Assembly: GCA_019058295.1 (NCBI GenBank)
Contig: JAHPZI010000021.1
Span: 64,001-128,000 of the forward strand
Length of the DNA stretch: 64,000 nt
From: Promethearchaeota archaeon
Lineage (GTDB): Archaea; Asgardarchaeota; Lokiarchaeia; Sigyniarchaeales; SOKP01
Direction: 5' to 3'
Part shown: piece by piece, positions 28,305 through 51,680 of the stretch
Numbering within the stretch: position 1 is the first letter of the stretch
Layout of the letters: each line of letters begins with the position of its first letter
Position numbers and translations under genes: made by a program
The notes under the pieces: generated by a model
Database searches by the model: none
Told to the model about the DNA's origin: nothing
What the model saw: only the letters and a program-made list of their open reading frames with translations

Positions 28305-28903
28305 TGAAAATCCTATTTATTAACAATTATGATAGTTTTGTTTATAATTTGGTCAATTATATCTGTCAATTAGAACCCAACGGCCAAATTATTATCGAGG
28401 ATAACCATATTGCGGTGGACAAGATTAAAGAAATGAATGTTGATAAAATAATTATTTCACCAGGACCTGGACATCCTAAGTATGACACGGGCACAGTAAT
28501 TCCCATCATTAAAGAATTTTATTCCAAAATACCAATATTAGGAATTTGCCTAGGGCATCAAGCTATTGTCGAAGCTTTCGGCGAAGATGAGAATATGGAA
28601 TATGTGGGCAGAGCTAAAGTAGGGCCCATGCACGGCAAGGAATCTAAAGTCTTTCACGACCAAGAAACAATTCTTAAGGACATCCCTAATCCACTCCAAG
28701 TAATTAGATATCACTCACTTTCCGCAAAATCCGATATTTTACCCCAAAACCTTAAAATTAGTGCGACTGCGGATGATGGCACAATCATGGGGGTTAGGCA
28801 TAAACAATATCCTATAGAAGGGGTCCAATTCCATCCCGAGTCGATAAAAATGAAACCTTATGGAATACAATTATTAAAAAATTTCTTAGAATTAAAAATA
28901 TAA
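28304..28903 (+). CDS. trpG: anthranilate synthase component II (class I glutamine amidotransferase)
   Basis: [36 protein letters not shown]; TAATG overlap with trpE. Confidence 0.95.
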   Translation: MKILFINNYDSFVYNLVNYICQLEPNGQIIIEDNHIAVDKIKEMNVDKIIISPGPGHPKYDTGTVIPIIKEFYSKIPILGICLGHQAIVEAFGEDENMEYVGRAKVGPMHGKESKVFHDQETILKDIPNPLQVIRYHSLSAKSDILPQNLKISATADDGTIMGVRHKQYPIEGVQFHPESIKMKPYGIQLLKNFLELKI

Positions 28904-28955
28904 GAATTTATCTAAAGTTTCTTGATGAAAGAAATAGTTGAAAAAAATAAAAGAA

Positions 28956-30620
28956 TTAAAGAAATGGAGCTGCATTCGATAAAGTAAATGCGAAGGGTGC
29001 TAATGTGCTTAGTAGACAAGTTATAATTATTGTAGTTACAATAGCTCCCGCAATGATATTACCAGATTCTTTATAGAGAACCGCTAATACAAATGAACAT
29101 AGAAGAGTAACAGGGGTTGCTATTATCAGAAAGATCATAGTAAAATAATTATTGGATACTACACAGAATAAGATTATATAGAAATATAAATATAATATCT
29201 GAAATAGAAATCCTAATACTCCAGTTTTTATTAATCCCTTTGGTTTGTCTCTAAGTTTTGTTTGGAACAGTAACTGCATAAGTATTCCGAGTGTTATCAT
29301 AATTAAGAAAATAATAGTAAAATAGATTGGAACCCAAGGCAATTTAAATATTGAAGGAATCCATCCGATATAATTGAATCCAAATGTGAGAATTAGTATA
29401 CTATAGAGAATTCCTCCTAAGATGATCCCTAATACAATATTTCTAAAAATTAATTCTTTCGGTTGTTTTAATGATTTTAGTATATATTCTTTTAATGAAG
29501 AATCCGACTTTTTAGCAATATTTCGGAGGAGCAATAGGATACCGAAGGCTTGTCCAAATAAAAGCATAGTAAATAATCCAGCAATGCTGAGAGGAAGTGT
29601 AAAGAGGATCCATGACATAATGACCATTCCTGGAATTCCAAATCCCAAGGAATATAATATTAGCTTTTTCGATAAACTCCTTACACTTTCGTTCGGCTCC
29701 TCAATCTCAATAATTTCCTCTTCCTTCTGATGCAAGATTACCCTTGAAAGTGGTTTTATCAGTAAGAAAAATAACCCAAGTCCTGCTGTTACCTGCATTA
29801 CCAGAATCCAAAATCTAAAATGGGCGTAGAAATTTTCATCTGGAGCTTTCACATTAGGGAATGTGTTTACAACCCAGTATCTTGCTTCCCTTATAAAGTC
29901 TGAATCCCAAGCAAGGGTTAAATGATCGCTATTATCATCAAGATAAATCATTGAAGCATTACGTTCAAAATCTCCATATAATTTATTCACATAGACATTT
30001 TTCGTTTTTTTACCTAACCAATCCCCCATTTCTGTTTTAGTTCTTTCCAAGGGATGTGCTTCATCATAACGAGCTTGGATCATGAGAATATTCAAACTTC
30101 TATTAGAAATATCATCCTTTTCGATTTCCAAGCCTGATCCGACTAAAATTAGACACTTAAAATCATCATCTTCCTTGACTACCCTATTTCCCGGCCATCC
30201 TCCCATGCTATATCCAAGGTATCCTAAATTATGTATGTCAACATCGCTTCTTTCATCTAAGTACTTTTTTACTGCTTTAACATCCCTGTCTAATTTATCA
30301 AAACTGATAGCTCCCGTACTTTGACCATGTCCTCTAAAATCTAGTGTTACTACTATAAAACCAGCAGCGGCCATTTCAATCGCGTAACCTTTTAAAAACT
30401 CTTTAGTTGCGGAACCACCATGCCCCAAAATCATCGCTTTCATCTTCTTATCACCATTAATTGGTTCGAATACATTAAAATAAATGGTAATACCATCATC
30501 AGTTTTAGTTGTCAATCCATATGTCACCTTAACACTCGCAGGTGTTGCAAACATAAAGACAGTGCCCAAAATAAAGCATGAAATAAGAATAGAACCAGTC
30601 AAAATCCGTTTTCTGTTCAT
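28956..30620 (-). CDS. alpha/beta hydrolase with C-terminal multi-pass membrane domain
   Basis: LDFRGHGQS, GYSMGG nucleophile elbow, about 8 C-terminal TM segments. Confidence 0.85.
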   Translation of the reverse strand: MNRKRILTGSILISCFILGTVFMFATPASVKVTYGLTTKTDDGITIYFNVFEPINGDKKMKAMILGHGGSATKEFLKGYAIEMAAAGFIVVTLDFRGHGQSTGAISFDKLDRDVKAVKKYLDERSDVDIHNLGYLGYSMGGWPGNRVVKEDDDFKCLILVGSGLEIEKDDISNRSLNILMIQARYDEAHPLERTKTEMGDWLGKKTKNVYVNKLYGDFERNASMIYLDDNSDHLTLAWDSDFIREARYWVVNTFPNVKAPDENFYAHFRFWILVMQVTAGLGLFFLLIKPLSRVILHQKEEEIIEIEEPNESVRSLSKKLILYSLGFGIPGMVIMSWILFTLPLSIAGLFTMLLFGQAFGILLLLRNIAKKSDSSLKEYILKSLKQPKELIFRNIVLGIILGGILYSILILTFGFNYIGWIPSIFKLPWVPIYFTIIFLIMITLGILMQLLFQTKLRDKPKGLIKTGVLGFLFQILYLYFYIILFCVVSNNYFTMIFLIIATPVTLLCSFVLAVLYKESGNIIAGAIVTTIIITCLLSTLAPFAFTLSNAAPFL

Positions 30621-30814
30621 AGTATCTACTCTTACTTATTGGATATTAAATAAATTTTAGATATTATGAGTAGTTTATTCTTGGTTTATTTATAAGTGTT
30701 ATTAAGATTATCAAAATTTAGAACTAAATATTGTTCTATAAAACCTTAAATTAAAAATTATATCGTAAAATTAAAATCATCAGAATATAATATGAATGTA
30801 TAGGAGTGATTTAA

Positions 30815-31045
30815 ATGACTATACTAAAAATAGAACAAGGTCAATCGCAAAAGATTGTAGATTTAGAAATTAAAGTCTTAGAAATTGAAGAATTAAATTA
30901 TGTTAAATTTTCTATTAATCAACATGGAACCATCGTAAAATTTGGTGGAGGGCAAGAGGACAAATTCACAGCATTTGAAAAAATTTTCGAAGTCAAAGAA
31001 ATAGGGAGATCACTTTTAGTTTTAGAAGTGATTGATGATAAATAA
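30815..31045 (+). CDS. small hypothetical protein
   Basis: ORF preceded by AGGAGTGA. Confidence 0.65.
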   Translation: MTILKIEQGQSQKIVDLEIKVLEIEELNYVKFSINQHGTIVKFGGGQEDKFTAFEKIFEVKEIGRSLLVLEVIDDK

Positions 31046-31067
31046 CTAAAATTCATAGGAAAATGAG

Positions 31068-31158
31068 AAATTTCCTATTGAAGATGTTCAATCCCCCCGA
31101 ATCCATTAGAATGAAGCCTCATGGAATGCAAATCCTGAAAAATTTCTTAAAATTATAA
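31068..31158 (+). pseudogene. trpG 3'-end remnant (frameshifted)
   Basis: Translates KFPIEDVQ-(fs)-PESIRMKPHGMQILKNFLKL* vs Trp[33 protein letters not shown]. Confidence 0.85.
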
Positions 31159-50110: not shown

Positions 50111-50214
50111 AATATGAAAAAAACGATAATGATATCAATAATTTATTTTGAATTCTTACTATTGCAAATAGACTTATTAATATAAAATATTTTTTTTATT
50201 AGTAATTTTATAAT

Positions 50215-50273
50215 CAAATCCATCCCGAATCCCTCAAAATGAAGCCCTATGGAATGATAATATTAATTTCTTA
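50215..50273 (+). pseudogene. trpG 3'-end remnant
   Basis: QIHPESLKMKPYGM…; nearly identical in nt to the 33550 remnant (CATCCCGAATCCCTCAAAATGAAGCCCTATGGA). Confidence 0.8.
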
Positions 50274-50365
50274 TCATCTGTTCAATATTTAAATTTTTAT
50301 CAAAAAACATTAATTTATTACTAATTTACAACAATTATAAGAATATTTTAAAATAAGCAATTACA

Positions 50366-51592
50366 ATGACTGAAAGTTCCGAAATTTCAAAAGAGAAATT
50401 AGATAAACGGATTCTTATAATTTTTTTAATAATTTTTACAGAAGTTTTAGGCTTTAGCATGGTGGCTCCAGTAATCCCATTTTTAGCGTTATCTCTTGGA
50501 TTGAATGTATTGCAGATTGGGTTGATTTTGAGTATTTTTAGTTTATGTCAGTTTTTTGCCAGCCCCGTGACAGGCAAATTAAGCGATCGTTATGGAAGAA
50601 AACCACTTTTAATAATTAGTCAGATTAGCACATTGATTGGTTTTATATTATTAGGTTTAGCAAATAGCGTTTGGATTTTAATTTCGGCTCGTTTGGTTGA
50701 TGGGCTTTTAGGCAGCAATATGACGGTTAGTCAAGCTTATATTAGTGATGTAACTGAGCCAAAAAATAGAACTAAAGTATATGGATATTCCAGTGCTGTT
50801 TTTGGTGCAGGATTAATCTTCGGACCATTAATAGGAGGAATACTTTCAACTATAAGTTATTCTACTCCGATGTTTTTTGCTGCTGTGGTAAGCTTAGTCT
50901 CAATTTTATTAATTGTTATTTTTCTCCCAGAATCTTTAACTGTAAAAGAAGAAAAGGTTAAAATTACATTTAATGATATTTTTCCTATTGATGATGCTAA
51001 AAGGTTTTTTAAAGACTCGAAAATTAGAAAAATACTCATTATTTTCTTTCTCTATAGTTTTGGATTTATGCTCTTTATTTCTACTTATGCTCTCTTCGCT
51101 GAAATGCAAATAAATGTCACGGCTCTTGAAGTGGGATTTTTTATGGCTTGGATCGGAATATTAAGAGTATTCTTTCAAACTGTTTTGATAAGGCCTCTTC
51201 AGAAGACATTTGGTGAGAATAAAATCTTAAAAATTGGAATAATTTCAATGATTACTGCCTTTACTCTTCTTTTTTTTACAACAACCTTTCTTTTTGCTTT
51301 TATACCTTTAGTTTTTATAGCTTTTGGGACTGGAATTTGCCGTCCTGTACTTACAAGCAAATTAGCAAATAGTGTTGAACGAGAAGAGACAGGAAGTCTT
51401 CTTGGTGTGAACAATGCACTTACGAGTATCGCAATGATAATTACACCAATACTAGGTGGAGTAATCTTATATTATTTAAGTTCTCAAACCTTACCCGTTA
51501 TTTCAGCATCATTTTTTGTAATTATATTTATTATATTGTTATTCAGCGTTTCGGAAAAAGATTCACTCCAAGAAGATATAACTGAAAATTAG
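50366..51592 (+). CDS. MFS transporter, DHA1/TetA-like
   Basis: GKLSDRYGRKP motif A, SQAYISD, GLIFGPLIGG motif C. Confidence 0.9.
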   Translation: MTESSEISKEKLDKRILIIFLIIFTEVLGFSMVAPVIPFLALSLGLNVLQIGLILSIFSLCQFFASPVTGKLSDRYGRKPLLIISQISTLIGFILLGLANSVWILISARLVDGLLGSNMTVSQAYISDVTEPKNRTKVYGYSSAVFGAGLIFGPLIGGILSTISYSTPMFFAAVVSLVSILLIVIFLPESLTVKEEKVKITFNDIFPIDDAKRFFKDSKIRKILIIFFLYSFGFMLFISTYALFAEMQINVTALEVGFFMAWIGILRVFFQTVLIRPLQKTFGENKILKIGIISMITAFTLLFFTTTFLFAFIPLVFIAFGTGICRPVLTSKLANSVEREETGSLLGVNNALTSIAMIITPILGGVILYYLSSQTLPVISASFFVIIFIILLFSVSEKDSLQEDITEN

Positions 51593-51596
51593 ATAT

Positions 51597-51680
51597 ACTG
51601 CTGATGATCGAACAATTATGGCTGTTCGGCATAATTAATTCCGAGTAGAAGGACTTCAATTCCACCCCGAATTCATCTTA
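51597..51680 (+). pseudogene. trpG/pabA-type 3' remnant with in-frame stop
   Basis: TADDRTIMAVRHN*FRVEGLQFHPEFIL vs [28 protein letters not shown]; starts 5 nt after the MFS stop. Confidence 0.85.

Follow-up and report, generated by a model that had tools for sequence, protein, structure and literature searches.

What builds an array of copies of a gene's own 3′ end behind that gene, with other genes in between? The question arises at trpG in a metagenome-assembled genome (MAG; 3.2 Mb, 30 contigs, 79% complete) of a promethearchaeote, in which trpE and trpG stand at the end of a tryptophan operon of the order trpD-C-F-B-A-E-G. The stretch analysed here, called the window, comprises 64,000 nucleotides (C21:64001-128000, C21 being the contig). 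An earlier note on this DNA had described such copies and proposed that successive insertions at trpG built the region. We find that the region is a displacement array: incoming DNA of another lineage brought a new trpG end together with cargo genes, and the old end and the older cargo moved downstream. Positions within trpG are given as trpG nt; our working labels are G000 for this genome and G007 and G005 for genomes of the same genus. The closest trpG relatives are MAGs of Promethearchaeota (Lokiarchaeia).

Partial trpG copies lie on one strand downstream of trpG

Across the whole 3.2 Mb genome, BLASTn and nhmmer found significant partial copies of trpG essentially only on C21, on the + strand and downstream of trpG, and none upstream of it, as the earlier note had remarked. 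Scans of both genome strands with 25- to 26-mer half-sites, allowing up to 5 mismatches, matched only trpG and its downstream remnants. Restricted in strand and position, the remnants are very unlikely to be a generic repeat. All seven copies described before are real: BLASTn and nhmmer recovered six of them and added an eighth outside the window, and the half-site scan confirmed the two put forward as weak candidates (41103, 3 mismatches; 42855, 4 mismatches). Copies do start close after the preceding stop codon (at 19, -2, 19 and -13 nt), and the last one begins ~17 nt earlier than claimed, inside an MFS gene. The array is ~51 kb long, not 23 kb. In window coordinates it reads:

26811..28304, +: trpE, anthranilate synthase component I (Pfam PF00425/PF04715; NCBIfam trpE models), the upstream homology anchor
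28304..28903, +: resident trpG, a GATase of 199 aa, the proposed target gene
28904..31064: unit 1, alpha/beta hydrolase membrane protein (28956-30620, -) and a 76-aa open reading frame (ORF; 30815-31045, +)
31065..31162, +: remnant 1, trpG nt ~500-598
31163..32830, +: unit 2, NAD-dependent epimerase/SDR and ADC-like gene
32831..33004, +: remnant 2, trpG nt 425-598
33005..33549, +: unit 3, antitoxin (33058-33258) and RelE/ParE toxin (33246-33530)
33550..33611, +: remnant 3, trpG nt 524-585
33612..41102: unit 4, two DUF998 genes, AMP-binding ligase, 209-aa ORF, FAD oxidoreductase and aldehyde:ferredoxin oxidoreductase
41103..41127, +: remnant 4, trpG nt 524-548, truncated (3 mismatches in 25, a class unique genome-wide)
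41128..42851, -: unit 5, amidohydrolase
42852..42888, +: remnant 5, trpG nt 541-577
42889..50213: unit 6, esterase, URO-D family gene, two ORFs of unknown function, GH5 and MFS
50214..50273, +: remnant 6, trpG nt 522-585
50274..51592, +: unit 7, MFS transporter (50366-51592); its stop codon and the first bases of remnant 7 overlap
51580..51677, +: remnant 7, trpG nt 446-543
57186..57265, -: argB 3′ end displaced into the old distal unit, the mark of a nested insertion of 20.2 kb
79547-79598, +: remnant 8, at the end of the distal unit, outside the window and 28 kb past remnant 7

Remnant 8 adjoins a lysW-argB-argX-like block and is shared with three same-genus genomes, which makes the far end of the array old. 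The worry that the assembly might be chimeric is countered by an independent Logan contig that equals window 32931-36058 at 100%.

Remnants resemble trpG alleles of other lineages

Remnants end at the stop of the gene, and their starts are variable. None is identical to its own resident trpG over its length, and several are nearer to residents of other genomes. Remnant 1 is 87% identical to a G007 allele versus 78% to resident trpG, and two G007 remnants share 89-94% identity with trpG of this genome versus 75-76% with G007's own. Remnant 2 differs from the resident at 2 positions in 130 nt and then continues in a foreign tail, which accompanies the toxin-antitoxin unit that follows; from ~nt 555 the resident tail is unlike that of this copy at 32831, the two being near-identical elsewhere. 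Remnant tails move with the cargo that follows them, and 5′ junctions with the cargo that precedes them. Together with the allele identities, this shows the remnants to be displaced ends, many of them mosaics: each is the 3′ end of a former trpG allele pushed downstream by an incoming one. The claim that the copies are former functional alleles differing mainly at third positions stood as far as codon bias goes (58 third, 30 first and 12 second positions, p=4e-7); three copies also carry stop codons and one an indel, and the remnants are thus old trpG alleles that have decayed since. A target-site duplication of the resident was rejected as general origin, since no remnant equals the resident, and is possible for the left part of remnant 2.

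Arrays of this kind recur in relatives. We found 19 matches to the trpG C-terminus in G007, 11 in G005, and remnants in at least five other genera, some in genomes in which no full trpG was found; each locus uses one strand, with 94/94 and 132/132 hits on that of trpG. Gene order downstream of trpG is variable, a point on which the earlier note had made its reading depend: many array genes are shared between G007 and this genome at 90-97% identity, yet different remnant-bounded inserts lie in between, including further ones inside the unit 4 region. The G007 orthologue of remnant 5 is better preserved. The amidohydrolase of unit 5 has a homologue in another genus that is followed by a nt-524 remnant, the 76-aa ORF of unit 1 stands 5′ of remnants at two other loci as well, and relatives of unit 3 in other genomes are also remnant-bounded, but with other neighbours. 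Such comparisons show that existing units are swapped between lineages by recombination within remnants of 50-600 nt. Upstream cargo falls into 94 families, RelE-type and PIN-type toxin-antitoxin genes being the commonest cargo families, and closely related trpG loci without remnants exist (e.g. G041). Successive insertions that displace former allele ends, as first proposed, are supported by allele identities, junctions and relatives, and so is the homology-anchored recombination that had been one of two suggested routes. Missed by the earlier reading were a junction hot spot, a trpG-linked nuclease in relatives and the fact that the signature is not unique to trpG.

Several loci show variations. 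G007 holds two trpG alleles that share only 74% identity; their contigs (L110 = C167, L034 = C80) have the same first base, and each allele has its own array. Away from the trp locus, the same genome carries a pair of trpG remnants flanking a PIN toxin gene directly after an msrA remnant (L119; G007:C18, ~1400-2290) and a lone 360-nt trpG remnant (L117; G007:C123:56949-57320); judging by these two, units can apparently move to other hot spots. At L041:9755-9997 and at L247, an 80-aa ORF sits at the trpE-trpG junction with the trpE end duplicated, and at other loci remnants start within trpE. A full trpG was found in only ~25 of 135 family genomes, and at least a dozen contain nothing but remnants, a pattern that points to the operon having been lost or gained repeatedly unless gaps in the assemblies are the cause.

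Junctions peak at nt 517-528 of trpG

The junction survey covers 78 distinct remnants in genomes, to which metagenome contigs added 58 independent junctions; the metagenome set was selected by pattern, with a bias only against starts after nt 526, and junctions past nt 555 are undetectable by the search used. Starts span from inside trpE to nt 546, with about 40 upstream of nt 481. Two sites emerged in trpG:

28820..28831, +: junction hot spot, trpG nt 517-528, directly 5′ of the catalytic FHPE codons (43/115 independent junctions); candidate cut or protected end
28855..28868, +: tail-exchange zone, trpG nt 552-565, marked by tract edges between alleles; alternative candidate cut site

The 43 junctions in the hot spot compare with 22 in the preceding 36 nt and 15 in the following 19 nt, and the peak is significant against both neighbouring stretches (p<1e-7). 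It is present in both sets (23/57 and 20/58) and survives the collapse to cargo families (38/94). Simulated truncations were detected and accurately placed down to nt 545, and the junction peak is therefore no detection artefact.

The exchange zone is seen in chimeric trpG alleles with swapped 3′ parts. Tract boundaries in these alleles concentrate around nt 555: stretches identical in two alleles stop at nt 552-567, and common tails start at nt 554-558. Between the L230 and L235 alleles, 0/35 differences are followed by 6/37, the step lying 30 nt from the junction peak. The stretch nt 520-554 is the most conserved of trpG (15% vs 25% divergence), which can inflate tract edges. A single fixed crossover was rejected because linkage analysis gave no clear cut, and an 11-nt microhomology between remnant 7 and the MFS end was set aside as probably part of the remnant itself, from comparison with a third MFS allele. 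Short remnants fit one synonymous-site pattern at nt 528-561 at 0.70, versus 0.55 for residents and 0.51 for nuclease-linked alleles, and no difference between remnants and residents was seen outside nt 528-561. This bias, with kin counted as independent, is no more than suggestive of allele-specific cutting.

A Vsr-like nuclease is encoded behind trpG in relatives

A cluster of nuclease genes found in the cargo stands tail-to-tail directly behind trpG in relatives, where it occupies the position directly downstream of trpG at 13 loci. A profile of the nuclease gave nine hits, each encoded on the strand opposite to trpG and 29-510 nt past a trpG end; two are truncated pieces that follow long remnants. 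Among 5.8 billion proteins, the seven closest homologues all lay behind trpG (7/7); four of these were found by protein similarity alone, one of the four being placed by gene order without DNA. The run of one homologue is numbered next to the run with this genome's contig, which suggests the same study. The placements show that this nuclease subfamily is specifically linked to trpG. Locus L239/L354 presents the minimal unit of trpG, nuclease and a remnant from nt 523.

The proteins measure 500-920 aa, with N-terminal parts built of tandem 68-aa helical repeats or treble-clef zinc fingers. For a model of the C-terminal domain (predicted local distance difference test, pLDDT, 88), the top two rows in VIA-align were Vsr (1cw0; Z 9.1, root-mean-square deviation (rmsd) 3.3, 115 aligned) and I-Bth0305I (3r3p; Z 8.6, rmsd 3.3, 96 aligned). 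Z values of 9.1 and 8.6 are only just over the level usual for unrelated folds, and Foldseek was not significant; a full-length model had no significant fold match and PDB sequence searches no match. PHROG hits were homing, HNH or intron-encoded nucleases, and no LAGLIDADG plus zinc finger domain of the WHO type (see below) was hit in Pfam or PHROG. E16, D51, H68 and D89 are invariant in 25 nuclease sequences, with a spacing unlike that of I-Bth0305I, and a match of these residues to the EDxHD catalytic residues is plausible. A search of 154 genomes of the order yielded no close relative of the helical-repeat nuclease (E<=1e-60).

The wider Vsr-like family is present in 62 of 135 family genomes, in up to 10 copies, some in very long open frames; it recurs behind pyrG, smc, moxR and a phosphatase-like gene, and two of its loci carry displaced 5′ ends of a RibD-like gene. 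Behind the C80 trpG allele of G007 lie a decayed nuclease and, 6 kb downstream, a whole displaced trpG.

No dedicated recombinase or attachment site was found with the arrays

The earlier note had likened the units to attC-bracketed cassettes and considered an integrase encoded elsewhere; that branch did not hold. The sole PF00589 gene (tyrosine recombinase) of the genome, at 79% completeness, is XerA, amid housekeeping genes. It is common to all five genomes searched and unlinked to arrays, its G007 orthologue scoring 101 bits against a cut-off of 265 for TIGR02249 (integron integrase), and no array locus contains an XerA-like gene. Serine recombinases or resolvases (PF07508, PF00239) had no match in the five genomes, one of which is 99% complete. 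None of the 78 remnants has attC-type (R-box) ends, and there is no stable hairpin (mean fold z ~ -0.1); with folding unexceptional and attC ends at 0/78, a single-stranded DNA hairpin or attC reading was rejected. The flanks are unrelated, with no shared attP arm in them or upstream of junctions, and two pattern scans and one protein scan of viral contigs for a viral attP were without match. A dif/XerA site was likewise discarded, as inspection revealed no paired dif-like arms and XerA is unlinked. On these sequence features, the array would not be an integron (no IntI beside attI, no attC) or an integrase island at a gene 3′ end (no cognate integrase, varying fragment lengths, no attP arm).

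Single displaced ends occur at other genes

Including trpG, 14 genes of this genome have a same-strand 3′ remnant downstream and 9 genes a 5′ remnant upstream; strand and position controls for the 3′ remnants gave 0-1, and remnant lengths in this genome-wide set are 32-190 nt. Each of the 13 other genes (contigs C17, C19, C21, C22, C28) has one displaced 3′ end 0.5-20 kb downstream. An msrA copy shows 100% identity over 42 nt. Because of these single displaced ends, a nuclease-free route to displaced ends exists. At argB, a 20.2 kb signalling cluster lies between diverged direct repeats of 80 nt (window 57186-57265 and 77469-77548; C21:121186-141548); the site is empty in G007, and the crossover fell within the 80-nt homology, ~50 nt from the repeat end.

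A multi-copy array of a gene's own end is found at trpG alone; across ~20 loci, the remaining trp genes have left a single remnant, of trpB. A 90-nt displaced trpB 3′ end is located between trpB and trpA at L124:13534-13623 (G024:C3). In the window, an insert of ~6 kb (20729-26388; oxidoreductase, glycyl radical enzyme, activase) splits the operon between trpA and trpE, a spot filled by other genes in three relatives; a trpA remnant was sought at this insertion and none was found. Elsewhere, G000:C7:1-10156 and C25:800-3400 contain long tandem repeats of ~219 nt within genes for large surface-type proteins, a feature common to many contig ends.

Proposed mechanism and alternatives

We favour, with some reserve, a model in which a free-standing homing endonuclease cuts the trpG end, donor-templated repair exchanges that end and brings cargo along, and the remnants then serve as recombination arms. 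Nucleases of the family described above, which combine variable DNA-binding repeats with a predicted Vsr/I-Bth0305I-type fold, would cleave sensitive alleles of trpG at a position within nt ~517-557. Repair of the left end would use the donor trpG, with copying through the nuclease gene and/or neighbouring cargo; the far end would be rejoined illegitimately, creating a new junction mostly at nt 517-528, or via a donor remnant, creating a mosaic one. The nuclease gene would later decay or vanish, as in this genome, to leave cargo-only units. Toxin-antitoxin pairs are probably kept in arrays because they resist deletion between repeats.

Several observations weigh against this model. No intact nuclease was found in this genome (79% complete), where a decayed trace lies on another contig, and the nuclease is in first position at only 5 of 45 intact trpG loci. 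At two of the four nuclease loci followed by a remnant, the entire gene is displaced (starts at -6 and 4), an outcome that one cut near 520 cannot yield; displaced ends are found at only 4 of ~28 other nuclease loci. About 40 junctions lie upstream of nt 481, the signals at nt ~521 and ~555 are not reconciled with a single cut, and the allele-bias test ignores kinship, its paired version (n=5) being uninformative. Remnants of pyrG, a second test of the nuclease model, were not detectable in 109 genomes despite adjoining family members in some, and at 13 other genes a single displaced 3′ end occurs where no adjacent nuclease is known.

An alternative is accretion that needs no nuclease, through homology-facilitated illegitimate recombination (HFIR) or single-crossover integration of circles anchored in trpE-trpG, with the nuclease as passenger or late parasite. 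The peak at ~75 nt would then reflect a trade-off, in which long repeats pop out and short ones do not recombine, together with a conserved block of 10 residues. We judge this unlikely, if the most serious of the rivals. It is consistent with the genome-wide signature (14 genes with 3′ and 9 with 5′ remnants, 3′ controls 0-1), the empty and filled argB pair with its crossover inside 80-nt homology, junction starts that run continuously into trpE, and the conservation of nt 520-554; the same model has been put forward for Vibrio type VI secretion system (T6SS) arrays (PMC5361080). It leaves unexplained, however, why one nuclease subfamily occurs only behind trpG (7/7), why the peak rises ~5x above its neighbours within 12 nt, and why remnants of other trp genes are nearly absent at the same loci, with one trpB copy.

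The fixed 3′ boundary, the preferred 5′ boundary and the exchange zone near nt 555 might instead point to a site-specific recombinase acting in trans on the last 75 nt of trpG as attachment site, in an integron- or island-like manner with the units as true cassettes; a short inverted repeat (nt 525-531 with 557-563) and compact toxin-antitoxin units in differing orders would suit this. We hold it to be improbable, given five genomes without serine recombinase or resolvase and with housekeeping XerA as sole shared tyrosine recombinase, remnants without attC ends (fold z ~ -0.1), varying starts without a shared upstream arm, and the presence of the same RelE family at most other loci without trpG sites. 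A generic dispersed repeat, neutral decay of tandem duplications or a chimeric assembly could be suspected in a metagenome assembly in which the two trpG contigs of G007 begin at the same point and a few G007 remnants lie away from trpG. Strict strand and position bias, third-position bias, allele identities pointing to other genomes, the perfect match of part of the array to an independent contig and the recurrence of arrays across many independent assemblies make any such origin exceedingly improbable.

Relation to known systems

Integrons and islands at gene 3′ ends (icd, guaA, rlmD) consist of repeat-bounded units, include many toxin-antitoxin pairs and restore the target gene. The trpG array shares the repeat-bounded units, the toxin-antitoxin pairs and the restored target, and its newest unit is probably nearest the anchor. 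In contrast to them, it has no IntI or serine integrase, attC structure or attP arm, its fragment length varies, and its cargo lies in both orientations with its own upstream regions.

Closer in outline are the WHO elements of Torulaspora and Lachancea (Coughlan et al. 2020, PMC7282813), in which a free-standing endonuclease gene lies directly behind its target. There, every event exchanges the 3′ end of the target and shifts the previous one downstream, many fragments share one start position, and arrays are polymorphic with decayed nuclease genes. At FBA1, clustered fragment starts predicted a WHO cut site that was later proven (PMC7282813). WHO proteins, however, are intein-like LAGLIDADG-zinc finger proteins of eukaryotes, with arrays of WHO genes and proven cleavage, whereas at trpG the candidate nuclease is Vsr/EDxHD-like, convergent to its target and usually lost, cargo is mainly unrelated, and fragments measure 50-600 nt. 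By analogy, the trpG system appears to work like WHO without being a member of the WHO family. The nuclease itself resembles I-Bth0305I of the EDxHD type (Taylor et al. 2011, PMC3239194) in its N-terminal DNA-binding region and C-terminal Vsr-fold nuclease, both predicted here, and in a plausible match of the invariant E, D, H and D; conserved codons would be targeted. I-Bth0305I, of 266 aa, is encoded by an intron of phage recA, whereas the trpG nucleases are free-standing, 500-920 aa long, equipped with 68-aa helical repeats or treble-clef zinc fingers, 15% identical to it and without PDB sequence match.

Co-conversion of flanking DNA is established for free-standing endonucleases (PMC2988022). 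Intronless homing by T4 seg/mob (PMC2988022) likewise involves an intergenic nuclease gene, a cut in a conserved neighbour gene and flank co-conversion, but uses homology on both sides and GIY-YIG/HNH folds, and displaced ends or cargo arrays are not described for it. Vibrio T6SS immunity arrays and Rhs/contact-dependent inhibition (CDI) orphans (Kirchberger et al. 2017, PMC5361080) share the one-sided homology anchor, older modules moved downstream, leftover 3′ ends and the lack of an integrase. There, anchor and cargo form one functional system; at trpG the anchor is biosynthetic, the cargo unrelated and the junctions sharply peaked. Features of HFIR displacement arrays found at trpG are one homologous anchor, a variable non-homologous joint and displaced older alleles. 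Searches of the open-access literature turned up no description of arrays of this kind, either at trpG or in Asgard archaea. We regard the array as a real, widespread feature, a variant that combines 3′-end-replacing homing with a displacement array, and not as an integron.

Implications

Accessory gene gain in Asgard archaea is poorly understood, and the locus offers a dated-looking record of gain without an integrase. It contributes a large collection of junctions, a nuclease subfamily specific to one target gene and a predicted cut window of only 40 bases; the candidate agent that it names is a trpG-specific nuclease with predicted natural sensitive and resistant alleles. More tentatively, and with some doubt on our part, gene-targeted, free-standing Vsr-type homing endonucleases of Asgard archaea could be the engine of an integrase-free, integron-like gene capture, in which remnants arise from the cut at trpG and are reusable arms, a toxin-antitoxin and metabolic pool is shared among genera and programmable repeats set the target. 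If the model is true, the cargo arrays of a prokaryote would be the work of selfish nucleases, by a route that to date has been proven for the yeast WHO elements alone, and the tandem-repeat DNA-binding domains would be a new source of sequence-specific nucleases.

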